A stretch of DNA of 64,000 bases, taken from sequence record MF327009; one strand, written 5' to 3'. The notes beneath the pieces were generated by a model that was not told the DNA's origin, made no database searches, and saw only the letters and a list, made by a program, of their open reading frames with translations. The stretch comes from Shigella phage Sf25. The stretch's first letter is position 1. Each line of letters opens with the position of its first letter. The translations under genes were made by a program, and so were the position numbers. Shown here in pieces: positions 15,399 to 64,000 of the stretch.

Positions 15399-15403
15399 AC
15401 TGA

Positions 15404-15437: not shown

Positions 15438-15460
15438 CTATTAAAATAAAGGGGCATACA

Positions 15461-16126: not shown

Positions 16127-16134
16127 GAGGACTT

Positions 16135-35643: not shown

Positions 35644-35666
35644 TTTATTCTCCAAGTTTTTCTGTA

Positions 35667-35709
35667 TCAGTAGTTGATATTGATATAGTACCATAATCAA
35701 CTACTGATG
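35667..35709. repeat. Perfect 13-bp inverted repeat (ATCAGTAGTTGAT / ATCAACTACTGAT) with 17-bp spacer, bracketing a promoter-like -10 element
   Basis: Arms at 35667-35679 and 35697-35709 are exact reverse complements. Confidence 0.7.
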
Positions 35710-35747
35710 TATATAGTTTTATGAAAAATTTTAAACTTTATGCAAAT

Positions 35748-36167
35748 TTATGCTAAAGCTGCTTCGCACCATTTTTTAATTTGGAATTCAGGAACTACCA
35801 TGAACTGGCCTGCAAAAACAATATTGTAGAGCTTGACACCATCTTCTACCCAACGGTCAGAAATAAAACCAGCGACTTGATTCGTTGTCCATGGAGTTCC
35901 ATCTGTTGCTGCCGCAATTGTGAATTTATGGTCTTTTACAACTAAAACTGAAGAACAAAGTTTCCATTTAAATGCGCTTTCTTCTGGCTCAATGAATTGG
36001 CTTGAGACGTAACCAATGTTACCATCGGCGTCACGAACTTTAACCTCGTTACGACCAAAAACTGGATCACTTACAGAAAGAACTTCAACCAGCTTTCCTG
36101 CAACTTTAGAACGAGAAGCAACGGATACATATACGTAATCACCAATAGAGAGATTTACAATATTCAT
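35748..36167 (-). CDS. Hypothetical protein, member 1 of a tandem paralogous triplet
   Basis: 139 aa; C-terminal motif GFISDRWVEDGVKLYNIVFAGQFMVVPE shared with the next two ORFs. Confidence 0.55.
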   Translation of the reverse strand: MNIVNLSIGDYVYVSVASRSKVAGKLVEVLSVSDPVFGRNEVKVRDADGNIGYVSSQFIEPEESAFKWKLCSSVLVVKDHKFTIAAATDGTPWTTNQVAGFISDRWVEDGVKLYNIVFAGQFMVVPEFQIKKWCEAALA

Positions 36168-36176
36168 AATAATTCC

Positions 36177-36650
36177 TTAAGCTTTACGAGGAGAAACATA
36201 ACGAGTGATTTCAGATTCTTCAACAACTCGGAAGTCACCTAAAAATACAATATTGTATAGCTTTTTACCGTCTTCAATCCATTGGTCTGTGATGAAGCCA
36301 CACATCCTATCAGTTTTACTTGGACCAGCGAAATCATCAATATAATCAAATTCTTCATCAGTTACAAATTCAACGCCTTTACACAACGCCCATTTAAATT
36401 GTGCATTAGACTCAGTGGATTCAACTTCTTCAACAGAAGCAAAATGAGCGCTAACATGAGTTTCCAAAAATTTAGGACTTACGTAAGCGTACTGAGTTTC
36501 AGTTTTTCCAGAACTAGGAATGATTCGAACTTTAACTTCTTTAACACGACCAGTACCATTAGTACGAAGTCCTACCACTTCAACTAGACGACCTGCAGCT
36601 TTAGAACGAGATGCAGACGATACACGCTTAATTTCACCAATAGTAATCAT
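36177..36650 (-). CDS. Hypothetical protein, member 2 of the paralogous triplet
   Basis: Probable start MITIGEIKRV (157 aa); C-terminal GFITDQWIEDGKKLYNIVFLGDFRVVEE. Confidence 0.55.
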   Translation of the reverse strand: MITIGEIKRVSSASRSKAAGRLVEVVGLRTNGTGRVKEVKVRIIPSSGKTETQYAYVSPKFLETHVSAHFASVEEVESTESNAQFKWALCKGVEFVTDEEFDYIDDFAGPSKTDRMCGFITDQWIEDGKKLYNIVFLGDFRVVEESEITRYVSPRKA

Positions 36651-42809: not shown

Positions 42810-42839
42810 ATCATATCATCGTTAGAAAGGAAAGTAAAC
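42810..42839 (-). promoter_or_regulatory. Putative early promoter for modB (GTTTAC-N18-TATGAT); part of it is re-created in the adjacent duplication
   Basis: Reverse complement GTTTACTTTCCTTTCTAACGATGATATGAT, then GGAGG RBS. Confidence 0.5.
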
Positions 42840-43228
42840 AACTTTTTGAATTATTTTGCCCAGGGAGCCCAAGGCGGAGGGTCAAGATGGTATGAAGCTA
42901 GTTCTTCTAGAAGAGCATCTGGGGCTTCAATTCCATAATTCTGTAATACTATACGGTACTCTTTCTTATAATCACTAGAATCATTCTGGTTATTCGTAGA
43001 ATGATTATCTTCTAACATTCATATCATCGTTAGAAAGGAAAGTAAACAACTTTTTGAATTATTTTGCCCAGGGAGCCCAAGGCGGAGGGTCAAGATGGTA
43101 TGAAGCTAGTTCTTCTAGAAGAGCATCTGGGGCTTCAATTCCATAATTCTGTAATACTATACGGTACTCTTTCTTATAATCACTAGAATCATTCTGGTTA
43201 TTCGTAGAATGATTATCTTCTAACATCT
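42813..43228. repeat. Exact direct tandem duplication, 2 x 208 bp, covering a promoter/intergenic region and most of a small ORF
   Basis: atatcatcgttagaaaggaaagtaaacaactttttgaattattttgcccagggagccc... begins at 42813 and 43021. Confidence 0.9.
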
Positions 43229-45530: not shown

Positions 45531-46293
45531 TTAATAGCCTCGATCTTGACGAGCGAAGTTTTCAGCATTTTTCAGATAATAAAGTTTAAAGATTTCCTCA
45601 GCTGACATTCCAAGAGCAATGAATTTATTCATGAAAAAGTGAAATTGGTCAATCAGTTCAAATTTAATTTCAAGCTGATCTTCAGGAGATAAGTCTTGAA
45701 TTTTCTTGGATTGCATTTCAGAATAACGTTTCTTCCAAGGTTTCCATACAGCAGAAGCTTCTTTTTCACCATTACTCATACCACCAAGAGAAGTATATAG
45801 CTCGCGAGTTTCATCTGCGATATAATCGTCTTGGTTTCGCAACCAAGCAAGAACTTCTCCTGCAGTTTCAAGTGAATCAGGATGACGATTTGTTTCTGGT
45901 TTATCATTAGCCAAACGAATCTGTAAATGCCGCTGCATGTCAAATTTTCTTGGATTGCATTTCAGAATAACGTTTCTTCCAAGGTTTCCATACAGCAGAA
46001 GCTTCTTTTTCACCATTACTCATACCACCAAGAGAAGTATATAGCTCGCGAGTTTCATCTGCGATATAATCGTCTTGGTTTCGCAACCAAGCAAGAACTT
46101 CTCCTGCAGTTTCAAGTGAATCAGGATGACGATTTGTTTCTGGTTTATCATTAGCCAAACGAATCTGTAAATGCCGCTGCATGTCAAGCATAACCTGCAA
46201 TGGGTCAATACTGTGCATAATATACTCAGCATATGCACGATTTGCTTTATCAACACCTTCGATCAAATGAGCACATTCATTAAAGTGAGCCAT
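45531..46293 (-). pseudogene. 56: dCTPase/dUTPase gp56 (MazG-like) disrupted by a frameshifting 244-bp tandem duplication
   Basis: N-terminal frame MAHFNECAHLIEGVDK... (AAGGAAA RBS) terminates at the repeat junction near 45940; C-terminal part ...ALGMSAEEIFKLYYLKNAENFARQDRGY is in another frame. Confidence 0.6.
45700..46187. repeat. Exact direct tandem duplication, 2 x 244 bp (not a multiple of 3), inside gene 56
   Basis: attttcttggattgcatttcagaataacgtttcttcc... begins at 45700 and 45944. Confidence 0.9.
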
Positions 46294-46353
46294 TATTTTT
46301 CCTTTCAATTCATTAATAAGTTAAATAATTATATCATTTGAGTATGTAAGCAA

Positions 46354-47693
<1,340 letters not shown>

Positions 47694-47718
47694 TATATCA
47701 TCCTCAGCAATTTGTTTT

Positions 47719-47748
47719 ATAATACCATAACAAGCTGAGAAAGTAAAC
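47719..47748 (-). promoter_or_regulatory. Putative early promoter (GTTTAC-N18-TATTAT)
   Basis: Reverse complement TTGTTTACTTTCTCAGCTTGTTATGGTATTAT. Confidence 0.5.
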
Positions 47749-47786
47749 AAATTTATGATAAATATTAATTTAAAGGAGGACGACGC

Positions 47787-47987
47787 ATGGTACAAAAATT
47801 AATGGCACTTGTTAATGCCATCAAAGGTAATAAAAAACGTATAGCTTTTACTATTTCTGCTATGGTAGGAATTTTACTCTGGAACTTTATTTTATCACCT
47901 GTTGCAATTGCACATGGTATTAATATTCCAGTAGTTACTCTTGATACATTCGTAGATTTAGCATTTGCTTTAGTTGGGTTAATTTAA
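47787..47987 (+). CDS. Small hydrophobic membrane protein encoded on the plus strand
   Basis: 66 aa; strong RBS AAGGAGGA 7 nt upstream of the ATG; two predicted TM segments. Confidence 0.5.
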   Translation: MVQKLMALVNAIKGNKKRIAFTISAMVGILLWNFILSPVAIAHGINIPVVTLDTFVDLAFALVGLI

Positions 47988-49012
47988 ATCTTAGCATATT
48001 TAGATAACCTCATTTTAGCCATCAACCCCTGGGCAATATTATTTTTCATATATTCCATAATTTGTTCAGGGGTTGCACCTTCCTTTCTAATCATATCATT
48101 AACATCTTTTGATTTCCAGGGAGATTTATCCCAAAACATAACTCTTTCTCCTGCATCAACTAATTTAGTCATTCGTTTGATAGTGTCAGGGTGACGAGGT
48201 TCATTATCTAAAACCCACACTCGTCTATCTTTAAATGGAACAACTTCTAGGTCTAATTGACCACCCGTAATAGCTATACCATTTTCAATAAAAAGTGAAT
48301 CTATAGGTCCTTCTAGAACATATACATCACCATCTTTAACTCGTTCAACACCGTAAATTTTTGTTGCCTCAGGATAAGCTTTGATGGTGATATACTTTTG
48401 TGGAGCATCTTTCTTTAATGCACGACCTTGAAAAGACTCAGCTTTTCCGTTAGCATTATAAATTGGAATAACAAGACGAGGCTCAGAAATTTCCTTTTTG
48501 TATGTTCCCGGTGCTATGCTATTAACTAATTTAGGCCATTCGGTTGTAAACCAAAGATATTTCCATTTATCCTTTGGAATACAACGAGCTTTTACATATT
48601 TTATAATTGGATGGTCTTCCGCCAGTTTATCTAATCTAACGCATGACGGAAGAGATTTAATTATTTTCTTCTCAGGCTGTTTAGGAAGTTCTTTAGGTTT
48701 TTCTACTGGACGACTTTTACCTTTTTCTTTTCTTATTTCAAAGATATACTCACGATATAAATCAGGTTCAAACTCCTTTAAATATATTCCGATTGGTGCA
48801 TGATAGTTACAGTTATAACAATGAATATTTCCTTCATTATTATCACCATAATACCATCCACGGGCTTTATTTTGGTCGGTTTTTGAATCTCCACAAACAG
48901 GGCATCTAAACCGCAACTTAAAGGTTGAACTATTATTTACTTGTGTAAATTTAGGTAAATGAGCTAATGCACGGTATGCAAACTCATTATCAATCCAAGG
49001 TATTGATGACAT
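47984..49012 (-). CDS. 61: DNA primase gp61
   Basis: 342 aa; zinc-ribbon CPVCGDSK...CYNC and TOPRIM region. Confidence 0.92.
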   Translation of the reverse strand: MSSIPWIDNEFAYRALAHLPKFTQVNNSSTFKLRFRCPVCGDSKTDQNKARGWYYGDNNEGNIHCYNCNYHAPIGIYLKEFEPDLYREYIFEIRKEKGKSRPVEKPKELPKQPEKKIIKSLPSCVRLDKLAEDHPIIKYVKARCIPKDKWKYLWFTTEWPKLVNSIAPGTYKKEISEPRLVIPIYNANGKAESFQGRALKKDAPQKYITIKAYPEATKIYGVERVKDGDVYVLEGPIDSLFIENGIAITGGQLDLEVVPFKDRRVWVLDNEPRHPDTIKRMTKLVDAGERVMFWDKSPWKSKDVNDMIRKEGATPEQIMEYMKNNIAQGLMAKMRLSKYAKI

Positions 49013-49180
49013 TTTTACTCTTCTTTTTCTTTAGATTCCTCTTTCTTCTTTTTAGGAATCTGTTCAGGACCTTTATTTACTACAGCACCTGACGTTGTTC
49101 CAGTAGAGATATTTTCAGGATTACCACCTGAATCTCCAGCGACCATATCTTCTTTAATAAATTCTTTATATGTTTTCATA

Positions 49181-49807
49181 TTAACCTCTATTCATAAAAG
49201 CATTAAAAATTTGGTCATCAATAGAAACATTTACTTTAGACTGTTTTTCTGATGGTAATTCATATCCACATATCACAATTTTATGATCAATATCAAAATA
49301 CACAGAAGCAATATGATTAATGATATTTTCAGTGAAGTCTAAATCGACATCAATATCTTTTTGACCAAAGCCCAAAGGATAAATAATGCGAGTAATTCGA
49401 TTATCTTTAACAAAGATTCCACCGACATACTCTGTACTGCGTTTAAAGTCTACACGCCGACGAAATGAAAAATATTCAGGCTCTTTATGAGCTCGGCTCA
49501 TAGGACACAACGAATAACTAGAATAAGAGATGTCAAATCCTACGCCTTCAATATGAGCCAAAGTGTCATGATTAAACCAATTATAATCGTACGCCAAATC
49601 CATTAGATTATAATATGTAAAAGGCACCGGATTAACATCATTAGTCACAAGCATGTAATTAGCAACTGCTATAATTTCATTGTTTTTAACGAATACAAAC
49701 CGTGATTGATGCGAATGACCTGGACCCGCGTTTTCACGATTAATGATATAACACTGGGCACCTTTATATTTGTATGTATCTTTGCACTTGTGCATTTGAT
49801 AGAGCAT
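49181..49807 (-). CDS. Hypothetical protein
   Basis: ORF track 208 aa. Confidence 0.5.
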   Translation of the reverse strand: MLYQMHKCKDTYKYKGAQCYIINRENAGPGHSHQSRFVFVKNNEIIAVANYMLVTNDVNPVPFTYYNLMDLAYDYNWFNHDTLAHIEGVGFDISYSSYSLCPMSRAHKEPEYFSFRRRVDFKRSTEYVGGIFVKDNRITRIIYPLGFGQKDIDVDLDFTENIINHIASVYFDIDHKIVICGYELPSEKQSKVNVSIDDQIFNAFMNRG

Positions 49808-50100
49808 TATTCACCTACCACTTCAGCGATGATATTTTTGTTATTAAAGTTTTTATCGCAATACAGAACATAATTATACTGCATTACACCACCAGACTTA
49901 AGCTGTTTTTGCACTTCAGCTTTCATTTCAGGACGATCGCGCTCAACAATATTCATAATATCCGCTTCAATTTGAGTTTCAACCTCAGTCTGATCAGCAG
50001 TCATAGACCATTCGCACAAATCTTTATCATAACCTGCCATAGCAGGCTGAGCAGCACAAGAAGCTAAAGCAAAAATTGTAGCAAAGATAAATTTTTTCAT
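49807..50100 (-). CDS. sp: Secreted/periplasmic protein, probable spackle-like superinfection exclusion factor
   Basis: 97 aa; signal peptide MKKFIFATIFALASCAAQPAMA; GAGGAG RBS. Confidence 0.55.
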   Translation of the reverse strand: MKKFIFATIFALASCAAQPAMAGYDKDLCEWSMTADQTEVETQIEADIMNIVERDRPEMKAEVQKQLKSGGVMQYNYVLYCDKNFNNKNIIAEVVGE

Positions 50101-50128
50101 GATAATCTCCTCAGTAGTTTATGTTTAT

Positions 50129-50158
50129 ATAGTATCTCAATTTCCAACAAAAGTAAAC
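50129..50158 (-). promoter_or_regulatory. Putative early promoter (GTTTAC-N18-TACTAT)
   Basis: Reverse complement GTTTACTTTTGTTGGAAATTGAGATACTAT. Confidence 0.5.
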
Positions 50159-50160
50159 AG

Positions 50161-50460
50161 TTATTTTAAAACTTCTGTGTAATCACATGTTACAAACTGT
50201 TTCTCTAGCTTGACGATTTTACGAAAGTATCTTTTACATTGACGAATCTGTCGCTTAGTAGGGCGCACAGCAAACTTAATAAATTCCACTCGACCAAATG
50301 GAGGGCTTTCTTCTGATGGAATATCTAACACCAATTCCCATGTATCTGCAATAAGTGCTTTGAATTGAGTATTTTTCCTAACGTTATACGGAGTAGGTTT
50401 AAATAAAACAATATGCATATTATCCTCGGCAATCCACTTCACATACTTTCTTGTCATCAA
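50161..50460 (-). CDS. Hypothetical basic protein
   Basis: ORF track 99 aa. Confidence 0.5.
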   Translation of the reverse strand: MMTRKYVKWIAEDNMHIVLFKPTPYNVRKNTQFKALIADTWELVLDIPSEESPPFGRVEFIKFAVRPTKRQIRQCKRYFRKIVKLEKQFVTCDYTEVLK

Positions 50461-50602
50461 TGAAAGCTTTAACTAATGCTTTATTAACTTCAGCATACTG
50501 AGTAGTAGCCCATTGAACGTCATCTTTCATCATTGTGGTTTCTTTAGTAAACATGCTTTCATTCTTAAACCACCCCATAAAAACTACCTTTACCAATTCC
50601 AT
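50420..50602 (-). CDS. Hypothetical protein
   Basis: ORF track 60 aa; GAGGAG RBS. Confidence 0.45.
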   Translation of the reverse strand: MELVKVVFMGWFKNESMFTKETTMMKDDVQWATTQYAEVNKALVKAFIDDKKVCEVDCRG

Positions 50603-50631
50603 AACAATCTCCTCATTTAACCAACAAGATT

Positions 50632-50661
50632 ACTATACCATAGTCTTGTCAGCTTGTAAAC
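50632..50661 (-). promoter_or_regulatory. Putative early promoter (GTTTAC-N18-TATAGT) overlapping the gene 41 stop
   Basis: Reverse complement GTTTACAAGCTGACAAGACTATGGTATAGT. Confidence 0.45.
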
Positions 50662-52088
50662 TAAAATTTTAATTCATTTGCCAAAGCATCTAACTGAGCT
50701 CGAGTAGATTCATTTCTTTGATAGCGATTCTGCTCAGCCTGAATCTGTTGTGAACCTGCTACTTCGTTCACTTCAGTTGGAGTAGAATCTTGTTCAATTT
50801 CTACCCATTTCTGATTTCCTTTTTGAACACCCATCAAAAACTTATTCCATTTATTCTTATCGCCATATCGTGATTTGATTTGCTTAATGAGTTGTTGTTC
50901 AGCAGCTGCTAGCTCCTCGGTTTCAATGACCGCAAGCATAAAATCAGCTGTTGCTGGAAGACCAGCAGATTCTGCAATATCGCTCATGTTAACATCGGAA
51001 GAGTCCCAAGCTTGTTTACCAACCTGCGCTGCGGTCCAAAGAACAGTTTCGGTTTCAACAGCAAGAGCACGCAATTCCTCTGCAATAGCTTTAACAGTTG
51101 TGTAACTATTTTCTGAATAAACTCTAATGCGGCAAGATTTACAAATACCTAGATAGTCGACAATAATGATTGTTGGAACAAAATTCTTCTTGAGCTTCAA
51201 TTCATTCAAGAGAGACCTGAATGTATTAGCGTCTGCTCCACCAGTAGGATATTGCTTAACGATTAAACGACCGAGAGTAGATTTCTCACGCCATTTTTCC
51301 ATTTTTCCTTTATATTCGGCGTAAGAAATATGTCCATCATCAATATCGTCAAGAGAAACATCGAGCATGTTAGCATCAATACGTTTAGCACAGACTTCTT
51401 CTGCCATTTCCATGGAGATATAAAGAACGTTATGACCAAGCTGCAAATAATCTGCTGCTAATGAGCAAAGTCCTAATGATTTACCAACGTTAACGCCAGC
51501 CATTAAAACGTTCAGTGTTCCTGTTTCAGCTCCGCCTTTTGTAATTTTATTCAAAATACGAAGTTTAAATGGAACCTTACGAGCTTTATTCATATAAGAT
51601 AGCCAGCGTGCTTCGTAGTCATCCATCCAATCATGACCAACGTAGCTATCAAATGAAATTGATAATGCTTGGCGCATGATGTCAGGAATAGCACCTACAT
51701 CTGGCATTTTCTTATTTCGTTTTTCCGGAGGAAGCTCAGCATTAGTTTGAATTTCGATTATTTTAGACGTAGCATTAAACATCGCCCTTTGCTGAACATA
51801 TTTTTCTGTTTCTTTTACTAACCAACTATGGTCTTCCGGAGAATCAGCTAGTTTTGAAATAAGTGTTTTTACACCAGAATATTCTGTTTCAGTAAATGAA
51901 CTATTTTCTAATGCAACATTTAACGCATTAATAGATGGAACGCTATGATACTCATTAACATGAGATTTAATTAATTTGAATGTATTTTTAGCTGGACCAC
52001 TTTCAAAATATTCTGAATCCATATATGGCCAAACTTTTGAAAAATAAGCTTGATCAAATATGAGATGAGAAAGAATAATTTCTACCAC
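50661..52088 (-). CDS. 41: Replicative DNA helicase gp41 (DnaB-like)
   Basis: 475 aa; Walker A GVNVGKS. Confidence 0.92.
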   Translation of the reverse strand: MVEIILSHLIFDQAYFSKVWPYMDSEYFESGPAKNTFKLIKSHVNEYHSVPSINALNVALENSSFTETEYSGVKTLISKLADSPEDHSWLVKETEKYVQQRAMFNATSKIIEIQTNAELPPEKRNKKMPDVGAIPDIMRQALSISFDSYVGHDWMDDYEARWLSYMNKARKVPFKLRILNKITKGGAETGTLNVLMAGVNVGKSLGLCSLAADYLQLGHNVLYISMEMAEEVCAKRIDANMLDVSLDDIDDGHISYAEYKGKMEKWREKSTLGRLIVKQYPTGGADANTFRSLLNELKLKKNFVPTIIIVDYLGICKSCRIRVYSENSYTTVKAIAEELRALAVETETVLWTAAQVGKQAWDSSDVNMSDIAESAGLPATADFMLAVIETEELAAAEQQLIKQIKSRYGDKNKWNKFLMGVQKGNQKWVEIEQDSTPTEVNEVAGSQQIQAEQNRYQRNESTRAQLDALANELKF

Positions 52089-52097
52089 ACTTACTCC

Positions 52098-52436
52098 TTA
52101 AAAGAATTTAAATTTTTTCTTTGACCTTTTATTAAATGCATCTTGCAGTTGCATTGTAATACATTTTTCTACATGAGGAGCTAACTCAGCTTTTCTTTCT
52201 TGGTCAAGAACAGCAAAGTCCATTACAACCTTTCCATCAACCCAATCCAGTTTAGTTACATACACTATATGTGTAGAACCATCTTCTAGTTTAATGACAA
52301 TCTCCTGGATAACATTTTCCATAGCGGATTTAATTATCTTAAGAGACTCATTAAAAAGACGTTCTTTTCTTTCTTTTTCCCCCTCCGAAGAGGGGGATTC
52401 ATCGATAATTTCTAAATCTAAATCATCTTTACTCAT
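52098..52436 (-). CDS. 40: Hypothetical acidic protein at the gene 40 position
   Basis: Probable start MSKDDLDLEII with GGAAGAA RBS; position between 41 and uvsX. Confidence 0.5.
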   Translation of the reverse strand: MSKDDLDLEIIDESPSSEGEKERKERLFNESLKIIKSAMENVIQEIVIKLEDGSTHIVYVTKLDWVDGKVVMDFAVLDQERKAELAPHVEKCITMQLQDAFNKRSKKKFKFF

Positions 52437-53610
52437 TAAATTCTTCCATATCACTTAACTGCTCGAGGTCAGTTTCTAAATCAGCTGCTGATTTACTTTT
52501 ACTTTCTGGAGATTTAAATTTTTCAACCTTTGAGTTAATCAATTCATCAACTTCAGCTTCAACAATTTCATTACTATCAATAGCACCTAACTGATAAGCA
52601 CGTTTAATAGCATCTCGGAATGGCTGATGCTTAAATAAAGGACCCCAGAATGTAGTGCAGTTGGTATCTTTTGCACGCCAAGATTTTTCTTCGCGAATCA
52701 TCTCACCGGTTTCTTCGTCAAGAAATTCACGAGCATACCAGCCATTTTTAGGTTTTACCACAAATCCTAATTCAAGAGCCATATCTAACAATCCAGAATA
52801 AGGATCGATGCCACCGTCAAATTTAACATCAATAAAGAATTTACTTTTTTCTTTAACGGTACGAGATTTTTCTACATTTAGAACAAATTGATACCCCTGA
52901 AGATCAGAACCATCTTTAATCTGGCGCTTACCGATAATGAATACAGTATCAGCCGAATACATTACGCCTGTACCACCTGTCATCACGGTTTTACTAAACA
53001 TTTCAATTGTTTCAATTGTATGGTTAACCGCAACACATGGAATATTTTTAATGCTAAAGTAAGGAGTAACAATACGGAATAATGACTTCAGTGATTTAGC
53101 ACGAGTCATATCTGCCACAGATTTTTCATTCAAGGCATCTTCAGTTTCTTTCTTAGAAGCCATATTACCGATTGAGTCGATGAATACAATAACTTTTTCA
53201 CCGCGCTCAATAGCTTCAAGCTGATTCACCATATCAATTTTTAGCTGTTCAACTGACTGAATCGGCGTATGAATTACTCGTTCTGGGTCAACCCCCATGG
53301 ATCGCAAATAAGCTGGAGTAATACCAAATTCGCTATCATAGAATAGACAAACCGCGTCAGGATATTTGTTCAAATATGCCGCAACCATAGTCAAAGACAT
53401 ATTTGATTTAAAGTGTTTAGAAGGCCCTGCGAAAATAGTTAAACCAGACTGCATACCGCCATCAATCGCACCAGAAATAGCAATATTAAGCATTGGAATT
53501 TTTGTACGAATTACATCCTTTTCATTAAAGAATTTAGATGTAGTCAGTTCAGCAGTCATTTTAGAAGTGGAAGCTTTAATCAAACGGGATTTTAAATCTG
53601 CAATAGACAT
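52429..53610 (-). CDS. uvsX: Recombinase UvsX (RecA-like)
   Basis: 393 aa; RecA-fold sequence with Walker A GPSKHFKS. Confidence 0.92.
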   Translation of the reverse strand: MSIADLKSRLIKASTSKMTAELTTSKFFNEKDVIRTKIPMLNIAISGAIDGGMQSGLTIFAGPSKHFKSNMSLTMVAAYLNKYPDAVCLFYDSEFGITPAYLRSMGVDPERVIHTPIQSVEQLKIDMVNQLEAIERGEKVIVFIDSIGNMASKKETEDALNEKSVADMTRAKSLKSLFRIVTPYFSIKNIPCVAVNHTIETIEMFSKTVMTGGTGVMYSADTVFIIGKRQIKDGSDLQGYQFVLNVEKSRTVKEKSKFFIDVKFDGGIDPYSGLLDMALELGFVVKPKNGWYAREFLDEETGEMIREEKSWRAKDTNCTTFWGPLFKHQPFRDAIKRAYQLGAIDSNEIVEAEVDELINSKVEKFKSPESKSKSAADLETDLEQLSDMEEFNE

Positions 53611-53687
53611 TCATTTTTTCCATAGGCATCATTATATTTTCCTCACTGGTTAAAGATAGAGTAATTATAACACAATAAATTTAGGCA

Positions 53688-54536
53688 TTAATCAACTGCT
53701 ATTGGATGAATAGCATTAAACTTATGAAATGCTTCTGATTTTTCTTTACGTGAAACGCACATGCGAAGAACCTTTAATGGTTCGTCTTCTTCACCCAACG
53801 ATTTTCGTTTTTCAATATTAGAAGTTTTCCAACGAGCTTGCTCTGGAAACTCTCTATTGATTTGCTCAAGCGCTCTATTATGTTTAGAATTACTACGAAT
53901 TGAACTGCACCCGCCAGGAGCTTGTGCTTTTCCAGATACAACCAGATATTTGAACAAGGCCAAATGCGGATAACCTTGATTAATTAAATTGAGAAATGCA
54001 TACATATCTTCGCACAAATCAATTTTTCCATACCCAATTTGTTCTGTCGTAAGTTTTCCAAGGTCATACCATGTATTCGTGAATCCATATGAATTTTCAC
54101 GATAATTACCCCAAGATGAAGTAATTTTAAAAATTGGTAGGCGAGCATGACCATGATAATACCCGCAATCCATGGCATCCTCAACGTATTGAATCAATTC
54201 ATAGAACTGTTCACGGGTTAATTGATTGACTTTATCTACACAACGACGGTCATCTCTTTTTCGCATTGAACTCATACGAATAGTAGTATCATCGTCAATC
54301 ATCCAGATTCGTTGACCTGCATACATATCAGTAATTGCTTTACGAGTACCGGCAATTCCGTTTACATCATCAGGAATAGTTATAATTTTAGCTCTAGACC
54401 CATAAGCGTCATAATAAGCTTTTTCTTCATGTTCACGCACTACAATATGGGGTTCATAATCAGTCGGAAACATATCAAGGGCAGAAACTGCCCCGACACG
54501 CTGATAACTTGGAATTACGAATTGAATCATTTCCAC
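53688..54536 (-). CDS. Putative GT-A-fold glycosyltransferase at the beta-gt locus (T2/T6-type beta-alpha-glucosyltransferase-like)
   Basis: 282 aa; DxD-type motif IDDDTT; position between uvsX and gene 42. Confidence 0.55.
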   Translation of the reverse strand: MEMIQFVIPSYQRVGAVSALDMFPTDYEPHIVVREHEEKAYYDAYGSRAKIITIPDDVNGIAGTRKAITDMYAGQRIWMIDDDTTIRMSSMRKRDDRRCVDKVNQLTREQFYELIQYVEDAMDCGYYHGHARLPIFKITSSWGNYRENSYGFTNTWYDLGKLTTEQIGYGKIDLCEDMYAFLNLINQGYPHLALFKYLVVSGKAQAPGGCSSIRSNSKHNRALEQINREFPEQARWKTSNIEKRKSLGEEDEPLKVLRMCVSRKEKSEAFHKFNAIHPIAVD

Positions 54537-55381
54537 TCACCGTTATAATCTTTTTTCACAATATGAGTTTCGCCAGTATTCCACCAATGATCAACCAAGT
54601 AAAAATGACGAGAATATACATGAAGACTTCCAACATTCCATATAATAGAACCTGCTTTATACTGACGAGTTGAATCGCCGGCATTCAAATCAGATACTAA
54701 TTTATCTAATACGTATTTTTGCCATGCATAATCATTACGGAATCCGAAGACCACGTCATTTGAGCGCATGCTTACTACTGCATTGACTTTCTTATCACGA
54801 ATCAGGTACTGTACTGTATTAGTACACATGAAATCTGACATACCATCTTTATTGTAGTCAAATTGCATGGATGGACGAGTCATGCTTACTACTGCATTGA
54901 CTTTCTTATCACGAATCAGGTACTGTACTGTATTAGTACACATGAAATCTGACATACCATCTTTATTGTAGTCAAATTGCATGGATGGACGAGTATAAAT
55001 CATGATACCACGTCGAGAATCAGGATTTTGACCAAGTTCAGCTAAACACATATCATACTGGGCATAGTTATCTTCTGACCAAATAGCCCAACCATAATTC
55101 GAGTTAATTTCGCCTTTAGAAGATGCTACCTGCTGCCAAATCTTTGGTGTTTCGCCTGGAATATCTTTGACAAACAGACTTTGAGACTTGTACCATTCAA
55201 GTTCACGCTGAATGTATTCATCATTAAGAGCGCCAAAAATAAAGGGTTCATCTGCTACAAATGATGCGCCAATAATTTCAATAGTTTTAACACCGGTTTT
55301 ATCAACTACGAAATCTTTTTCTTTTAATGCAAGCCCCAAATGAAGACGGATTTCTTCAACTGTCATAAAGTCACTAATCAT
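54527..55381 (-). CDS. 42: dCMP hydroxymethylase gp42; 284 aa including a 38-aa in-frame tandem duplication
   Basis: ThyA-like fold sequence; peptide TRPSMQFDYNKDGMSDFMCTNTVQYLIRDKKVNAVVSM occurs twice. Confidence 0.9.
   Translation of the reverse strand: MISDFMTVEEIRLHLGLALKEKDFVVDKTGVKTIEIIGASFVADEPFIFGALNDEYIQRELEWYKSQSLFVKDIPGETPKIWQQVASSKGEINSNYGWAIWSEDNYAQYDMCLAELGQNPDSRRGIMIYTRPSMQFDYNKDGMSDFMCTNTVQYLIRDKKVNAVVSMTRPSMQFDYNKDGMSDFMCTNTVQYLIRDKKVNAVVSMRSNDVVFGFRNDYAWQKYVLDKLVSDLNAGDSTRQYKAGSIIWNVGSLHVYSRHFYLVDHWWNTGETHIVKKDYNGEWK
54767..54994. repeat. Exact direct tandem duplication, 2 x 114 bp, inside gene 42
   Basis: catgcttactactgcattgactttcttatcacgaatcagg... begins at 54767 and 54881. 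Confidence 0.9.
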
Positions 55382-55388
55382 TTAAACC

Positions 55389-55538
55389 TCAATTGATACA
55401 TTCATATTTAACTTGTAACAGTAATAAGCTCCAACCTAAAATAATAGTCGGAATCATAAGAGGAACCGTTACACTATAGTATATACTTATTATAATCATC
55501 AAGATTAAAAGCAACACTGTTATAATTTTGCTTTTCAT
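55389..55538 (-). CDS. Small hydrophobic membrane peptide (49 aa)
   Basis: Hand translation MKSKIITVLLLILMIIISIYYSVTVPLMIPTIILGWSLLLLQVKYECIN; ATG overlaps the imm stop (ATGA). Confidence 0.45.
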   Translation of the reverse strand: MKSKIITVLLLILMIIISIYYSVTVPLMIPTIILGWSLLLLQVKYECIN

Positions 55539-55786
55539 TCTTTCTCTCTGATGATAATTACCTGATTTGGCTGTGCAGACTTTTTAGTTTCACCAGCAAT
55601 TGACCAAATAAATGTAATAAACCAACCAATAATTGACCAGTTAAACAGTAAAGATGTGAAAAAGATTCCTACTGTCGATTTTGACCCACGCATCAAGGCG
55701 ATAAACCATGGAAGCATGTATATAATAATAGCCAACACACCTGAAACTAAAACCATAAAAATTGAACCTGCTACTAAAGTTTCCAT
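55535..55786 (-). CDS. imm: Immunity to superinfection membrane protein Imm
   Basis: 83 aa; two hydrophobic segments. Confidence 0.75.
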   Translation of the reverse strand: METLVAGSIFMVLVSGVLAIIIYMLPWFIALMRGSKSTVGIFFTSLLFNWSIIGWFITFIWSIAGETKKSAQPNQVIIIREKE

Positions 55787-55793
55787 GTTTTCC

Positions 55794-56174
55794 TCACTTA
55801 GTCAAATTTTTTACGCATGAATTATAAGAATTCACTACATACTCCATCGGAGCATTTTTACCAGTACGCCATTGGTAATTATTAGCCCAATTAGCCCAAA
55901 GCTCGGCGCAGTAGTTTTCAATTTTTTCTTCGCGTGTAATTACATCAGAATTACGATATGCTTGAGCAGATTCATTTGGACGAATAGCTTCGTCAAAATT
56001 CGCCTGCATTTGTTCTACTGTTTGCTTTGGAGCTTCTTTATAACACTTGACATTAGGATTATAAAATTTGCTTGAACAGTTTACAATTTTTCCTACATCA
56101 GACTGATTTATTACCGGTCCTTGAGCTACACAACCAGTAAGACCTAATGCAATAACCAAAATAGCGATTTTCAT
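55794..56174 (-). CDS. Putative lipoprotein
   Basis: 126 aa; signal sequence with lipobox LTGC (MKIAILVIALGLTGCVAQ). Confidence 0.55.
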   Translation of the reverse strand: MKIAILVIALGLTGCVAQGPVINQSDVGKIVNCSSKFYNPNVKCYKEAPKQTVEQMQANFDEAIRPNESAQAYRNSDVITREEKIENYCAELWANWANNYQWRTGKNAPMEYVVNSYNSCVKNLTK

Positions 56175-56184
56175 AATAATTTCC

Positions 56185-56433
56185 TCAAATGCAAGTAGTA
56201 ATTACTCCAGTAGTGCTTATGCAGGTATTACCCATTTGCACACCTAAAGATCCATTTGTATTCACATGAAGATTATCATCAATTTTAACTGATATTTTAC
56301 CATTAGTGTGAATAACGGTGCTAGATTCAATCACAGGTTGAGTATCATTTTCAACACTAACAAATGGAACTGCTGCTAATGCAACTAAACAAACTGCTAA
56401 GCATCCCATAACAATTTTCATTTTATTCTCCAA
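56185..56433 (-). CDS. Small secreted or membrane protein
   Basis: 82 aa; hydrophobic N-terminus MKIVMGCLAVCLVALAAVPFVSV. Confidence 0.5.
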   Translation of the reverse strand: MENKMKIVMGCLAVCLVALAAVPFVSVENDTQPVIESSTVIHTNGKISVKIDDNLHVNTNGSLGVQMGNTCISTTGVITTCI

Positions 56434-56455
56434 ATCCGTATTAGTTGATAGTTGT

Positions 56456-56485
56456 ATAGTACCATGGAAGAACAGTCTTGTAAAC
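56456..56485 (-). promoter_or_regulatory. Putative early promoter (GTTTAC-N18-TACTAT)
   Basis: Reverse complement GTTTACAAGACTGTTCTTCCATGGTACTAT. Confidence 0.5.
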
Positions 56486-56564
56486 AGTTTTGTGAAAATT
56501 TTTTAGGGAATTCTAAAGGTCCAGAATCATCTGTTTTTCATAAGTATAGATTTATATTACTTGT

Positions 56565-56589
56565 ATGAAAAAGGGACCCGGAGGTCCCT
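56565..56589 (-). terminator. Intrinsic terminator downstream of gene 43
   Basis: Minus strand GGGACC-UCCG-GGTCCC followed by TTTTTCATAC. Confidence 0.7.
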
Positions 56590-56601
56590 AGATTTATTCT
56601 A

Positions 56602-59445
56602 TCAGCCAAACAGGAAGTCTAACGAAGCTTTTTCTTCATAGTCCATACCAGCCGATTCACACATGCCTGCAAGCGGTTTAACAAACGATTTTTGGAACAA
56701 AGTTGAGTAGTCAATCCAAGACAGTACGTCAGAACGAATTTCTTTTGGAAGTTCTGTACCCGACGGCCAAGCAATGCATTTGTCACCAAATGGATTTCCT
56801 TCACGCAATGGAAGAACCATTACTTTATTTCCATCCAAAATTGGAGCTACACCTAAACCGCTAACAGCTCGACGATAAGTTAGCACACCACGAATATGGA
56901 ACGGACATTTAAATCCTGGCCAACCTTTATCATCATATTTCGCTATATCGTTCGCAGTTTTTACTTCAGCAATAACTTTATAGTCAAGTTGACGATATTC
57001 TTTCTCGAAGTTCTTGTAATATTCTTGGACAGACTCTTCACCTTCCTGAAGAATACGACGAATACTTTCTTCGAGAGCTTCTTGGACCGCTTTAGGCGTT
57101 GAACTCTGCTGAGTTTCCATACCCATGATTTTTAGATGCGGTTCAGCAAATCGCTTATCTTCCATATCATATACGTTCAGAGCATAACGCTTTTTCGCTT
57201 TCCAAAATCCGCCAACGCCCTTTGAACCAAGTGGAGGGCAAGAAATAGCTTCACGGTCCATATGCATCAGATGCTCGCGGTTATTCATATAATCACATAA
57301 CTCACGATATGCAACATCAATCATAGGTTCCATCTTTTTCTTACCGAACTGATTCATGAATTCAACTAAATCGTTCTGCTCTTTGAATCGGTCAAGACCA
57401 ACTTTTTCAATAACTTTATCTACACAAACATATACCGAATCAGTATCACCTGCTGCAATGAAATCTTCGCCATTAGTTCCGCATACTTTATTCAGATATT
57501 CATTAATTTTACGAGCAATCCACTGAATACCAACTTGGCCGAAAATTGTGATAGCAGTAGCATTTCGCAAATCATAGTAACGGAAATGAATATTACCAAG
57601 AGCACCATAAAGACTGTTAATAAGAATTTTACGGTTCAGCTGATTTGTGTTAGCAAGTGTAGCTGCTTTTTCACACTCTTCGATCAAACTATTAAGAACA
57701 GATTCGGTGTAATTCGATAGTTCATTTAAGAAATCATCACTGAACTTAACATATCGTTCAACTTCTGGTTTAGTTGAGCAAGACCCTGCGCCTTTCATAA
57801 TAATCTTTTTAATAGCTTCGGCATTCATTTCTTCAGCGAACATTTTCTTTTTCCAATCTTTACGCTGGAAAAATACTTTAGCGATTTCCTTTGGAATGAT
57901 ACCTTCTTGATGCTTATCATACATCCATCCATTCGGAGAACAAGAATATTCATCACTCGGTTTAGGAGCTGTTCCTGCGATATATTCATGAATTGGATGA
58001 ACTTTAAACTGACCACGAATAGTCTCAGGACTAATGTTAACCTGACGAATAATGCTCGGATACAGAGACGTCAAGTCAAAACTCATAATATATCGACGAG
58101 CAATTGGTTTAGGTTCAAACACAAATGCACCCGGAAAACTCTGTTTAACGTGCGAACCTTGTTGAGGAATAACCTTATGTTCACCTTTCAATGAGTTAAA
58201 AATAATAGCATCCCAAGTTTTAATAGGACTCATTACACCGGAAAAAGGCATTTTAGCGTAATAAGACATACTTAAAACTAGATCGATAAACCCGCGAATT
58301 TTATCAATTGCTTGAACTGATTCTACGTCAATGATGTTATAACTAATGTATCGTTGATGATTAGTCTCACGAAGTTTATTAATAGGACCGTCGTATGGTA
58401 ATTTACCTTTTTTGGTTTCATGTTGAGCAACTGATTCCAAAGAGAATGACGGCAAATTAGTAAAAGCGAATTTCTTGTACAAATCTAAATAATCAAGAAT
58501 AGATACGCCATCAATAGAATAAATTTCTTTGCTGCCGTACATATTTTGAATTAGTTTGGATTTTACCCGACCGATTGGAGAGAAACGTTTCATACTGCGT
58601 TCGCCTAGAATCATTTTAACACGATTCATGATATATGGAACGTCAAACCCCTCAATATTCCAACCGGTAAAAATAGCAGGTCGTTTCTGTTCCCAGAGAT
58701 TGATATATTCCATGAGCATATCACGCTCATTATCGAATGGCATATAAATTACTCGGTCAAGAATTTCTTGAGGAACTTCATCACCACCTTCACAGTCAAG
58801 CTTAGCAGCTAACTTTGCATCCCATTTTGATACTGAACCGTACATTGAATTCAAAAGGTCGAAAACATAAAAACGATCGTCAATTGAATCGTAATGAGTG
58901 ATAGCATCAATTTCATATTCAGCTTTCATTGGGTCAGGAAATTTATCACCAGTAACCTCAATGTCACAGTTAGCTACACGAACACCGTACATTGAATTCA
59001 AAAGGTCGAAAACATAAAAACGATCGTCAATTGAATCGTAATGAGTGATAGCATCAATTTCATATTCAGCTTTCATTGGGTCAGGAAATTTATCACCAGT
59101 AACCTCAATGTCACAGTTAGCTACACGAACAAATTTTCGGTCATAAACAATTTCTGAACCATATGTATCACTGATATAAGCGAGTTTAAAATCGTTCATA
59201 CCGAGAGCTTCGAGACCGATGTCTTCCATTCGCTTCATCCAATCTCGAGCATCTTTCATTGATGGAAATTTTTGAGGAGCGCAGTTTTTACCATAGATGT
59301 CTTTGTACTTTGACTCTTCCTTACAATGCCTAAACATAGTTGGAAGATATTCTACTTCACGAGTACGTTCCTTTCCATTTTCATCAATATAACGTTCAAC
59401 AATATTATTTCCGACTGTTTCAATAGAGATATAAAATTCTTTCAT
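56602..59445 (-). CDS. 43: DNA polymerase gp43 (family B); 947 aa including a 49-aa in-frame tandem duplication in the N-terminal/exonuclease region
   Basis: Pol B motifs (DxxSLYPS-like FDLTSLYPSII, YGDTDS-like GDTDSVY); peptide VRVANCDIEVTGDKFPDPMKAEYEIDAITHYDSIDDRFYVFDLLNSMYG occurs twice. Confidence 0.92.
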   Translation of the reverse strand: MKEFYISIETVGNNIVERYIDENGKERTREVEYLPTMFRHCKEESKYKDIYGKNCAPQKFPSMKDARDWMKRMEDIGLEALGMNDFKLAYISDTYGSEIVYDRKFVRVANCDIEVTGDKFPDPMKAEYEIDAITHYDSIDDRFYVFDLLNSMYGVRVANCDIEVTGDKFPDPMKAEYEIDAITHYDSIDDRFYVFDLLNSMYGSVSKWDAKLAAKLDCEGGDEVPQEILDRVIYMPFDNERDMLMEYINLWEQKRPAIFTGWNIEGFDVPYIMNRVKMILGERSMKRFSPIGRVKSKLIQNMYGSKEIYSIDGVSILDYLDLYKKFAFTNLPSFSLESVAQHETKKGKLPYDGPINKLRETNHQRYISYNIIDVESVQAIDKIRGFIDLVLSMSYYAKMPFSGVMSPIKTWDAIIFNSLKGEHKVIPQQGSHVKQSFPGAFVFEPKPIARRYIMSFDLTSLYPSIIRQVNISPETIRGQFKVHPIHEYIAGTAPKPSDEYSCSPNGWMYDKHQEGIIPKEIAKVFFQRKDWKKKMFAEEMNAEAIKKIIMKGAGSCSTKPEVERYVKFSDDFLNELSNYTESVLNSLIEECEKAATLANTNQLNRKILINSLYGALGNIHFRYYDLRNATAITIFGQVGIQWIARKINEYLNKVCGTNGEDFIAAGDTDSVYVCVDKVIEKVGLDRFKEQNDLVEFMNQFGKKKMEPMIDVAYRELCDYMNNREHLMHMDREAISCPPLGSKGVGGFWKAKKRYALNVYDMEDKRFAEPHLKIMGMETQQSSTPKAVQEALEESIRRILQEGEESVQEYYKNFEKEYRQLDYKVIAEVKTANDIAKYDDKGWPGFKCPFHIRGVLTYRRAVSGLGVAPILDGNKVMVLPLREGNPFGDKCIAWPSGTELPKEIRSDVLSWIDYSTLFQKSFVKPLAGMCESAGMDYEEKASLDFLFG
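58837..59130. repeat. Exact direct tandem duplication, 2 x 147 bp, inside gene 43
   Basis: accgtacattgaattcaaaaggtcgaaaacataaaaacgatcg... begins at 58837 and 58984. Confidence 0.9.
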
Positions 59446-60116: not shown

Positions 60117-60541
60117 TTACCATTCCAATGCTAGTTTTTTGAGTTGTTTCTGTTCTTTTACGTTCTTAGTCACTTCTTTCAAAAAATCATATCTTCGACC
60201 AGTTTTGCCCATTTACCATATCTTTTACCACGAGGAACTGCAGCCATCAGATAATTAAAATGAGCTTCATCACTTAAGCCTGATCCAATTAAATTCATAG
60301 CATATACAGCTGGCATGCACTCTGGAAATTGTGATAATGCATTTTCAACCATGAATTTTGAATAATCTTTTTGAGCAATAGAGCATTTAGTTTTATTATT
60401 AATAGCTCCAATTATTTCAAAAAATTCATTTTCAGCTTTTTCTTTAAAAGAATCAGCAGCAGATTGGACAGCTGTCCAATCTTTTGAATACCAAGCAACT
60501 TGATGCTCGTTTAATTGAATATCATCTTCAAATAAGCTCAT
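60117..60541 (-). pseudogene. 62: Clamp loader small subunit gp62, disrupted by an internal frameshifting lesion
   Basis: N-terminal frame [22 protein letters not shown]... stops at 60179 (...KLVEDMIF*); downstream, out of frame, [23 protein letters not shown] ends at the regA start. Confidence 0.55.
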
Positions 60542-60542
60542 A

Positions 60543-61502
60543 TCACTTCCACTGCATTTCACATGCTAATTGAATGAAAAGATAAGCTAAATGTAATTCA
60601 GTGTTAGCTGCAATACCATGATACTGATTATTTTCACCAACAATTTCGTACATACGAATAATACTTTGCGGAGTTACACGTGAATAGATTTCTTCGGCAA
60701 GTTTACCCACGAACCACGAATAATCAGCTGCATATTTTGGTGCTAAAGCTCTGAGTTGTTTAACATCTTTATTTTTGAGAGACTCAAGAACATCATCAAT
60801 AGCACCACGATCGTTAGTAACCAGTGATAAAATACCAGCATCCAAAACACCTTTAGATGAATAACTATCGAGCTCACCAATAGTTTTACGAAAATCAGGA
60901 AAATTCTTTTTAACCAAAGCTGCTACAACTTTCATATCAGCTATAGCAATTCCTTCATGCTTGCAGATTTCAGTCAATCGACGAATCATCTGCTTCATCA
61001 TTTCAATTTTATCTTCATCGGTCGGTTGACCGAATGTAATAACTCGGCAGCGTGACTGGAGAGGTTTAATAATACCATCAATATTGTTAGCAGTAATAAT
61101 AATACTACAGTTTGAACTATAAGCTTCCATAAAGGAACGAAGATGTCGCTGAGACTCTGCTAACCCTGAGCGGTCAAATTCATCAATAACGATTACTTTT
61201 TGACGACCATCAAATGAAGCGGCGCTGGCAAAATTAGTCAAAGGACCACGAACGAAATCAATTTTACAATCTGACCCATTCACAAACATCATATCAGCAT
61301 TTACATCATGACACAATGCTTTCGCTACAGTTGTTTTACCTGTTCCTGGAGAAGGAGAATGAAGAATAATATGTGGAATTTTACCTTTACTTGTAATAGA
61401 TTTAAAGGTTTCTTTATCAAAGGCGGGAAGAATACATTCATCGATAGTAGATGGACGATATTTCTGTTCAAGAATGTGTTCTTTTTCATTTACGGTAATC
61501 AT
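60543..61502 (-). CDS. 44: Clamp loader large subunit gp44 (AAA+)
   Basis: Probable start MITVNEKEH (319 aa); Walker [11 protein letters not shown]. Confidence 0.92.
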
Positions 61503-61553
61503 AATTTCCTCATACAAGTTTTAGTGTAAATTATAAAGGGCCGAAGCCCTCTA

Positions 61554-62240
61554 TTAAAAATCGTGGGTAGAATCAGCTTCAAGAGCTACTACATAATTCG
61601 CATGTTCACCTTCAAATTTAGCAGCGCCTTGTTTACCTTTTGCCCAAAGCAGAAGTTTATAATTTCCTGGTTGCATTTTCATATTTGCCATATTGATAAT
61701 GAAATTAAATGTATTTTCACCATCATAATCACCAAGAGTCAAAGAATATTTAACACGGGTAAGAGCAGAATCTTCTACTTTATTAAAACCGTTAATTACG
61801 ATTTTACCTTCTTTTACCGTGATAGCAATTGTATCAATTTGCAGACCACGAGATACACGCAACAGCTGTTGAAGGTCTTCAGCTTTAATTTCAGTAACAA
61901 CAGATGCTACCGGGAATGGAATTGGTTTATTAGGAGCAACTACTGTACTCGGATCGGCTGCTGGCCAAAAAATTGTTGAACGAGCATCAGCAATTTTAAT
62001 ATTTCCATCTTCTGACTGGGAAATTTCTGCATCATCATTAACTAGAGACAGAATACCGAGAAAACCGTTCAAATCGTAAATTGCTACATCAAAATCAATA
62101 ACGTCAGAAATATTTGCTTCCGCATAAGTTGTACCATTAACTGCGCGAGTCATAATAAATTGACCGGATTTAAGCATAATACCGGAGTTAATAGTAGCGA
62201 AATTTTTAAGCAGAGCAGTAGTATCTTTAGACAGTTTCAT
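61554..62240 (-). CDS. 45: Sliding clamp gp45
   Basis: 228 aa MKLSKDTTALLKNFATINSGIMLKSGQFIMTRAVNG... Confidence 0.92.
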   Translation of the reverse strand: MKLSKDTTALLKNFATINSGIMLKSGQFIMTRAVNGTTYAEANISDVIDFDVAIYDLNGFLGILSLVNDDAEISQSEDGNIKIADARSTIFWPAADPSTVVAPNKPIPFPVASVVTEIKAEDLQQLLRVSRGLQIDTIAITVKEGKIVINGFNKVEDSALTRVKYSLTLGDYDGENTFNFIINMANMKMQPGNYKLLLWAKGKQGAAKFEGEHANYVVALEADSTHDF

Positions 62241-62295
62241 GTAATTTCCTTCAATTCAAATGAGATTTAATTTTATAACTAATTTAATAAAGCAA

Positions 62296-62685
62296 TTAAC
62301 GATTAAAATCAGCCGCAATTGTTTCAGCAACAATTTGAGCAGCAACAATTAGGCGTTCATCTGCATTACCGCAATATTCATCTTCTAAACGTTCACCGCA
62401 TGAAGTCATAATAAATTTAGCACCGGCGTTTAGGGATTCTGCAGTATGTTTGCGCATTAGTTCAATCCATTTATTACTTACTTCACGATCGATAGCTTCA
62501 TAATACGCATGACGAGCAGGTGCAGATTTAATTTTGTTCTGAATAACTTCCATTGCGTTATCAGAAAGAGACAAAACCCATGCGCGACGAATTTTATTTT
62601 GGTTTTGCGGATTTGAGTCAGAACGCACGTGTTTTGGCTGAATATCTTTTACATCAACAGTATAATTCACAGTAATTTTAGTCAT
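62296..62685 (-). CDS. rpbA: RNA polymerase-binding protein RpbA
   Basis: 129 aa; position between 45 and 46. Confidence 0.7.
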
Positions 62686-62694
62686 AATACACCT

Positions 62695-62883
62695 TTAGTC
62701 ATAATAATCAGTAACAGTCCAAGCTTCATTTCTATTGGACATTATTTTTGTATATTCTGCTTTAAATGCATTCCTAAGCATAGATTCAGTAACTATATGC
62801 TCTTCATTAGAAAAATTATTTCTCAGAATATATCGTTTTATTTCAGGAAAAGTTAATAGATGCTGTCCAGTTGAATATTCCAT
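62695..62883 (-). CDS. Hypothetical protein
   Basis: ORF track 62 aa. Confidence 0.45.
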   Translation of the reverse strand: MEYSTGQHLLTFPEIKRYILRNNFSNEEHIVTESMLRNAFKAEYTKIMSNRNEAWTVTDYYD

Positions 62884-62938
62884 GTTTTTCCTCCATAGAG
62901 ATTATACTCTAATAAATTAAAGCATAATCTCTTATAAA

Positions 62939-64000
62939 TTAAACCATTACAGTAAATCGACCAACTTTCTTCATTTGAAGATGCTGACCATATTCTTGCG
63001 GGTCATGGTCTTTATGCGAAATTATAAAAACATTAGTGTTTTTCATTGAATTTATAATATTAGCTACACCTTTAATACCTTCGGCATCAAATGACCCATC
63101 AAACACTTCATCGAGTATTAACGTACTAATACTAACACCAGATACAATAGAAGCAATATCACGCCAAGTAAATAAAAGAGCAATATCAATTCGTGCTTTT
63201 TCACCTTCACTAAATGAAGCATAACTAAAATCTTCACGACCACGGGATTTAATTGTCTCATTAAATTCTTCATCTAATGTAAACACATAATCCGCTTCCA
63301 TTATTTTAAGATAATGGTTAATCTGCTTATTAAATAATGGAACGTACTTTTTAATAATAGCACCTTTAATACCAGAATCTTTGAGCATATCAGTCAAAAT
63401 TCCTCGGTGGTATTTTTCCATTACTAAATTAGTTTTTGTCTTAACAATTTTATCAAGTTCTTCTTGAAGCAGTGCTATTTCATCAGCATGGTCAATAAAC
63501 TCAGAAGATGCTTTTTCTATAGCTGCTTTAACTTTTTTAGCTTTATCTACCGTCGTGATTAGAGATTGCTTTTTATTGCGAATATCATTTGCCAACGACT
63601 GCTGAGTTTTAATATTATCTCGGTATTCATCAACAAGAACTTTTAAATTATCACGGTGTGTTGAAAGCTGTTCAAACGAATGCGTACATTCAGAAACTTT
63701 ATCTTTAATTTTAGAAACAACTTTATCACCGGAACTTAATTGTGACAAACAGGTTGGACATAATCCACCTTCGTGATACATATTAATGACTTTATTATAC
63801 GAGTCAATTTTTGATTTAATTAAAACTGCTTCTTGACCGATTTTATTAAATGCATCAGTCGGGTCTTCATCCAAAACAATATTAACTAATCTTTCGTTAG
63901 CTTCTTCTATTTCCGATTTTAGCGTTCTAGCTTCTTTTGCCAAATCATCATACATATTTTGTAGACGTGTAAGGTTGTCACCCGTTAATTTTTTCTGGCG
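62939..64000 (-). CDS. 46: Recombination endonuclease subunit gp46 (SbcC/Rad50-like), C-terminal part; gene continues beyond window end
   Basis: ABC-ATPase signature and Walker B region (LILDEVFDGSFD); coiled-coil with CxxC zinc hook (CPTC); reading frame stays open to position 64000. Confidence 0.88.
   Translation of the reverse strand, partial: RQKKLTGDNLTRLQNMYDDLAKEARTLKSEIEEANERLVNIVLDEDPTDAFNKIGQEAVLIKSKIDSYNKVINMYHEGGLCPTCLSQLSSGDKVVSKIKDKVSECTHSFEQLSTHRDNLKVLVDEYRDNIKTQQSLANDIRNKKQSLITTVDKAKKVKAAIEKASSEFIDHADEIALLQEELDKIVKTKTNLVMEKYHRGILTDMLKDSGIKGAIIKKYVPLFNKQINHYLKIMEADYVFTLDEEFNETIKSRGREDFSYASFSEGEKARIDIALLFTWRDIASIVSGVSISTLILDEVFDGSFDAEGIKGVANIINSMKNTNVFIISHKDHDPQEYGQHLQMKKVGRFTVMV

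Follow-up and report, generated by a model that had tools for sequence, protein, structure and literature searches.

The DNA analysed here, referred to below as the window, is a 64,000-nucleotide (64-kb) stretch of the record of Shigella phage Sf25 (GenBank MF327009). On its minus strand, at positions 54527 to 55381, it carries gene 42 (dCMP hydroxymethylase), deposited as an 855-bp open reading frame (ORF) encoding 284 aa. The assignment is based on the ORF list, on a match to the Pfam thymidylate synthase family PF00303 (E = 1.6e-13; 50.9 bits, with a cutoff of 24.3), and on the identity of the 284-aa product to AUV63453.1, annotated as dCMP hydroxymethylase of Sf25 in MF327009. The product also matched the solved T4 enzyme, with an E value of 6.5e-180 to 1b49_A. 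The surroundings of gene 42 comprise UvsX and a homologue of beta-glucosyl-HMC-alpha-glucosyltransferase, as in T2- and T6-type relatives. The latter gene (53688-54530, minus strand) matches the TET-associated glycosyltransferase family PF20691; in related phage records it is named beta-glucosyl-HMC-alpha-glucosyltransferase (T2/T6 type), and the Sf24 homologue is called beta glucosyltransferase. Nothing odd is overlapped at its stop end, and the exact protein is widespread, the contig index containing it in 349 blocks.

Within gene 42, Tandem Repeats Finder detected a tandem repeat at 54767-54994 (score, 456), in which a 114-bp period is present in 2.0 copies that match at 100% and have 0% indels. 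An exact scan placed copy 1 at 54767-54880 and copy 2 at 54881-54994; the match does not extend by even one base at either outer end. A perfect repeat of 114 bp cannot have originated by chance. The novel junction between the copies, 54880/54881, is flanked by the letters GGATGGACGAGT and CATGCTTACTAC, and the 24-mer centred on it (54869-54892) reads GGATGGACGAGTCATGCTTACTAC. As the gene is read from the minus strand, copy 2 is the first in coding order and specifies residues 130-167, and copy 1 is the second and specifies residues 168-205 of the 284; the peptide TRPSMQFDYNKDGMSDFMCTNTVQYLIRDKKVNAVVSM is accordingly found twice in tandem in the product. When one copy was taken out, the remaining ORF encoded a 246-aa protein that has nothing unusual about it within the T4 gp42 family.

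The deposited product does not align collinearly with the 246-residue T4 enzyme. Against the solved structures (1b49, 1b5d, 1b5e, and 6a9b) it gave two overlapping stretches, matching residues 1-167 and then residues 130-245, and the repeated peptide therefore corresponds to residues 130-167. In T4 dCMP hydroxymethylase, a dimeric enzyme, Cys148 is the catalytic nucleophile and Asp179 specifies cytosine, while Ser144, Asp145, and Phe146 are, together with Cys148, active-site residues (PMC6400193). The repeated residues include Ser144, Asp145, Phe146, and Cys148, and both copies carry the catalytic cysteine as a TGT codon (54938-54940 for Cys148 in copy 2 and 54824-54826 in copy 1). The equivalent of Asp179 is encoded by the GAT codon at 54731-54733. 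The original prediction of a 114-bp in-frame tandem duplication at 54767-54994 that adds 38 residues to the catalytic part of the gene 42 product was therefore correct as to position, gene, and segment, the scans, the PF00303 match, and the T4 alignment all agreeing with it. A structure of the 284-aa product predicted from the single sequence had a mean pLDDT of 35.5, too low for use.

We then determined whether the junction or the 284-aa form occurs elsewhere. In the relatives listed among the 501 phage records in which the gene is covered for the most part, gene 42 spans 741 bp, i.e., 246 codons, and all 10 independent contigs encoding an identical neighbouring glucosyltransferase (in its 280-aa form) carry a 246-aa gene 42; the predicted contrast between 284 and 246 aa is thus borne out. 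The gene as a whole is 99.9% identical to that of one other phage, Aplg8. A 100-bp query centred on 54880/54881 returned 453 matching phage records, and it was contiguous in none of the matches listed, each of which consisted of two separate 50-bp pieces (best E = 1e-17). As a positive control we used the single repeat of the Sf24 genome, described below, whose own junction was recovered contiguously at E = 2e-45 in the two Sf24 records, so a query of this kind is able to detect a real junction. The junction 24-mer of gene 42 was not found in IMG/VR or in metagenome contigs. In the eight-member protein cluster of the product the junction was missing from the other members, which are C-terminal fragments, and the exact 284-aa product was found on no contig of the assembly index. 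With the exact Dda helicase of the window as a query, the nearest contigs were about 93-95% identical over 21 kb; at this distance they served as controls and not as replicates of the Sf25 genotype.

The gene 42 repeat is one of seven perfect two-copy tandem repeats in the 64 kb, with periods, in the order of the window, of 249, 178, 249, 208, 244, 114, and 147 bp. All seven lie in minus-strand genes, whose names at these sites were taken from the Sf24 annotation. The 249-bp repeat at 1651-2148 lengthens NrdA, deposited at 837 aa, and that at 30631-31128 lengthens rIIA, deposited at 808 aa; none of 10 independent contigs had the junction of the latter in contiguous form. The 178-bp repeat at 2916-3271 shifts the frame of the NrdA.1 homologue, and the 208-bp repeat at 42811-43226 doubles a small ORF, affecting the ModA.2 homologue and its flank. 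Gene 56 (dCTPase) is frameshifted by the 244-bp repeat at 45699-46186 and split into two ORFs, one of 122 aa and one of 161 aa, which become one continuous ORF once a copy is removed. The 147-bp repeat at 58837-59130 in gene 43 (DNA polymerase) brings the deposited product to 947 aa by adding 49 aa, with residues 106-154 doubled; these include the stretch CDIEV, which we take to be the Exo I motif. Altogether, three of the seven repeats shift the reading frame. Removal of one copy restored the canonical lengths of NrdA (754 aa), rIIA (725 aa), gp42 (246 aa), and gp43 (898 aa). Sf24, the closest relative, which comes from the same study and is 99.1% identical over 19 kb, has a single copy at all seven sites, and the junctions tested were absent from about 500 related phage records and from the independent contigs covering those sites.

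To judge how unusual such a density is, the same exact-repeat scan was run on the 168-kb Sf24 genome and on 68 kb and 189 kb from 20 independent contigs. The controls yielded one repeat in 425,730 bases, that of Sf24, against seven in the 64 kb of the window (binomial p = 4.6e-6). In the 257,618 bases from independent laboratories no such repeat was found (p = 1.2e-5 against the window). The one in Sf24, a genome from the same laboratory, is a perfect 265-bp two-copy repeat (MF327008.1, 92090-92619) in a small gene of unknown function, its copies being annotated as the paralogous genes gp121 and gp122. Among 309 matching records it was present just in the GenBank and RefSeq copies of that genome, and its unit is single copy in the Sf25 window. 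It is probably an artefact of the same kind as that proposed below for Sf25. The UvsW helicase of Sf24 (34755-36266 of an MF327008.1 segment) is annotated as "non-functional due to frameshift", possibly a second problem of sequence quality in this sibling record.

The window also contains abrupt deletions. At 8809/8810, 173 bp are missing, so that gp33 is fused to a gp59 lacking its first 52 residues, and at 60190/60191 the loss of 139 bp truncates gp62, a clamp-loader subunit. Both junctions are confined to this record: about 497 and 498 phage records, respectively, contain both halves at 100% identity, always 173 and 139 bp apart and never contiguous. An alignment to Sf24 revealed a 156-bp deletion at 41990/41991 in the ModA homologue, whose junction none of 10 independent contigs contained in contiguous form. 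All three of these tested deletion junctions were thus absent from every other sequence examined. A further 173-bp deletion relative to Sf24 is located at 18146/18147 in gp37, which is broken into three ORFs, and gp38 is broken into two. More deletions relative to Sf24 were seen at about 18604, 20000, 20470, 26625, and 44625, the sizes overall being about 65-173 bp. Not every length difference between the two genomes is an artefact, as the 335-bp difference at 45498, where Sf24 has extra small genes, shows: the form present in the window is shared by 5 of the 10 independent contigs, which makes it a natural indel and no error. The notion of the gene 42 repeat as a lone feature of the phage was not supported by these observations, given six more perfect two-copy repeats and record-only deletions that break essential genes in the same window.

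The repeats have several further properties in common. Microhomology at the junctions is 0 nt for gene 42 and 0-3 nt over all seven, which is about the level of chance. None of the periods exceeds 249 bp and two are exactly 249 bp, values that would fit 250-nt reads; the repeat of Sf24 is 265 bp long. The repeated units diverge less from Sf24 than the adjoining sequence does: 13 mismatches were counted over 1,389 bp of the units, compared with 174 over 5,398 bp of the flanks (p = 4.6e-7). The sequence between joins forms blocks of two kinds, with an identity to Sf24 of 99.7-99.9% or of about 95-97%, and the changes from one kind to the other coincide with repeat and deletion junctions. Thus, identity is 99.78% for 45943-54880, i.e., up to the gene 42 junction, and 97.25% for 54881-58984 beyond it; the blocks 8810-18146, 45943-54880, and 60191-64000 contrast with the rest of the window. 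The blocks and the Sf24-like units hint at contigs that ended at points of divergence between variants, possibly from a mixed or cross-contaminated sample, but the natural mosaicism of T4-like genomes accounts for the blocks equally well.

The window holds one more tandem duplication, of a different appearance. It is a 66-bp in-frame repeat at 6472-6603 in the Frd.2 homologue, with one mismatch between its copies and with one copy fewer in the relatives listed. An imperfect 12-bp direct repeat, ATGATTTCATCT / TTGACTTCATCT, flanks it, a feature that the seven perfect repeats lack, and its second copy begins with a hybrid of ATGATTTCATCT and TTGACTTCATCT. Because of these flanking repeats and the hybrid start, it could be a genuine product of slippage or recombination.

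Genes 42, 56, 43, 62, 33, and 37 are essential in T4. For T4 with defects in genes 42 and 56, the synthesis of stable DNA requires a further defect in denB, and plaque formation requires an alc mutation in addition to that in denB (PMC1635256). The window carries an intact denB with 100% identity to its Sf24 counterpart; alc is located outside the 64 kb. By these genetics, a frameshifted gene 56 combined with an intact denB would not permit stable DNA synthesis. With essential genes broken and denB intact, it is therefore not credible that a plaque-purified phage has the genome that was deposited. An independent comparative study published in 2021 left out the Sf25 genome, since frame shifts in a number of core genes left components of the core genome missing (PMC8056088).

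Taken together, these data indicate with a probability of about 0.93 that the repeat in gene 42 is an artefact of the way the MF327009 record was built and not a feature of the virus. The reading rests on the six sibling repeats and on the record-only deletions in essential genes. Most likely, the real Sf25 phage has an ordinary gene 42 of 246 aa, and the sequencing reads would be expected to contain a single copy of the segment. As to the specific mechanism, a failure to merge overlaps during joining is probable, though we hold it with somewhat less assurance than the artefact itself. MF327009 would then consist of contigs or consensus pieces that were ordered and abutted end to end. Wherever neighbouring pieces overlapped, the shared stretch would have been written twice, giving a perfect two-copy tandem repeat, of which the 114 bp in gene 42 would be one; wherever they did not meet, the gap would have been silently closed, leaving an abrupt deletion. 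Such joining fits the chance-level microhomology, the Sf24-like units, and the switches of identity at the joins, and it may also account for the 249-bp ceiling. Two perfectly identical copies, as expected of an artefact, were found at 7 of 7 sites (100% matches, 2.0 copies), and the recurrence of repeats within the record, seven of them alongside silent deletions, is matched by their rarity elsewhere (1 in 425,730 control bases). Against an artefact, the gene 42 repeat is in frame and, taken alone, not obviously lethal, genuine tandem duplications are known in T4, and perfect overlaps of this size (114-249 bp) are normally merged during assembly.

A genuine, recent in-frame duplication, yielding a 284-aa enzyme in which one copy of residues 130-167 fills the normal position in the fold while the second is looped out, is in our view very unlikely. 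Tandem duplications do occur in T4 and are known from its genetics, the ORF stays open through the repeat, the catalytic cysteine is present in both copies, and perfect identity would suit a very recent event. None of what would set a genuine duplication apart, namely, independent support, isolation, viability, and homology at the end points, was found for the gene 42 repeat, however. It is one of seven alike, some of them frameshifting or in essential genes, and to regard it as real would require an origin different from that of its six look-alikes. Its junction occurs in no other sequence searched and shows no microhomology, unlike the 66-bp repeat at 6472-6603 with its 12-bp flanking repeats. 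Moreover, an insertion of 38 residues at the active site of a dimeric enzyme would be unlikely to be harmless, because the segment holds Ser144, Asp145, Phe146, and Cys148.

Just as improbable is that the repeats are real in a defective or minority subpopulation of a mixed lysate and entered the consensus by mistake. The blocks of identity to Sf24 (99.7-99.9% versus 95-97%), switching at joins, are compatible with a mixture, but the natural mosaicism of T4-like genomes means that they do not require one. Seven independent duplications all reaching the consensus would be far less economical than one procedural error, and the accompanying silent deletions suit an error of joining. Yet more remote, to the point of being negligible, is that Sf25 is a natural cytosine-DNA phage devoid of genes 42 and 56, the repeats being inactivating lesions. 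Genes 42 and 56 are indeed both altered, and laboratory T4 mutants lacking them are able to form plaques when mutations in denB and alc are added (PMC1635256); against this, the window has an undamaged denB that matches the Sf24 gene at 100%, the glucosyltransferase beside gene 42 is likewise intact and represents an allele found widely, and lesions are also found in gp43, gp62, and gp33/gp59, which are unrelated to cytosine modification. An artefact of record building thus remains the preferred explanation.

If the duplication were real after all, which we regard as a slim prospect, a working 284-aa enzyme would tolerate a second catalytic-cysteine segment in the core of the thymidylate synthase fold, and gene 42 would provide a fresh case of an essential enzyme that has grown by internal duplication. 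With the repeat as an artefact, the biological content is small, the gene being an ordinary T4-type dCMP hydroxymethylase, and the practical worth lies in database hygiene, that is, in flagging MF327009. The 284-aa entry (AUV63453.1; UniRef100_A0A2K9VM64) can lead studies of protein families, core genomes, and duplication rates astray, and the same holds for other MF327009 products, namely, NrdA of 837 aa, rIIA of 808 aa, gp43 of 947 aa, the split gp56, the truncated gp62, and the gp33-gp59 fusion. As a rule, when a perfect two-copy repeat is found within a gene, others should be looked for in the same record before it is interpreted.

Compared with T4 gp42 (PDB 1B49, 1B5D, 1B5E, 6A9A, 6A9B, and 6L18), Sf25 gp42 is near-identical, has the equivalents of Cys148 and Asp179, and occupies the same genomic place, between the glucosyltransferase and the imm-side genes; the T4 protein lacks the 38 extra residues, whereas the deposited Sf25 protein has a second copy of residues 130-167. 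The 265-bp repeat of Sf24 resembles those of Sf25 in being perfect, in having two copies, and in occurring in one genome, and it differs in being a lone event in 168 kb. The classical duplications of the T4 rII region are likewise head-to-tail doublings of a stretch of the genome, but these are single, selected, and usually far longer, and are not known to form clusters of seven short repeats in essential genes. False tandem duplications that arise from unmerged overlapping contig ends are a recognised class of assembly error. The Sf25 repeats share with them perfect identity, two copies, lengths of 114-249 bp (perhaps up to about a read length), and the occurrence of many in one record, as well as the silent gap-closure deletions alongside and the lack of a counterpart in related genomes; they differ in that the overlap lengths in Sf25 vary and do not correspond to one fixed k-mer length. 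On each feature that could be tested, the gene 42 repeat fits this class of false duplications.
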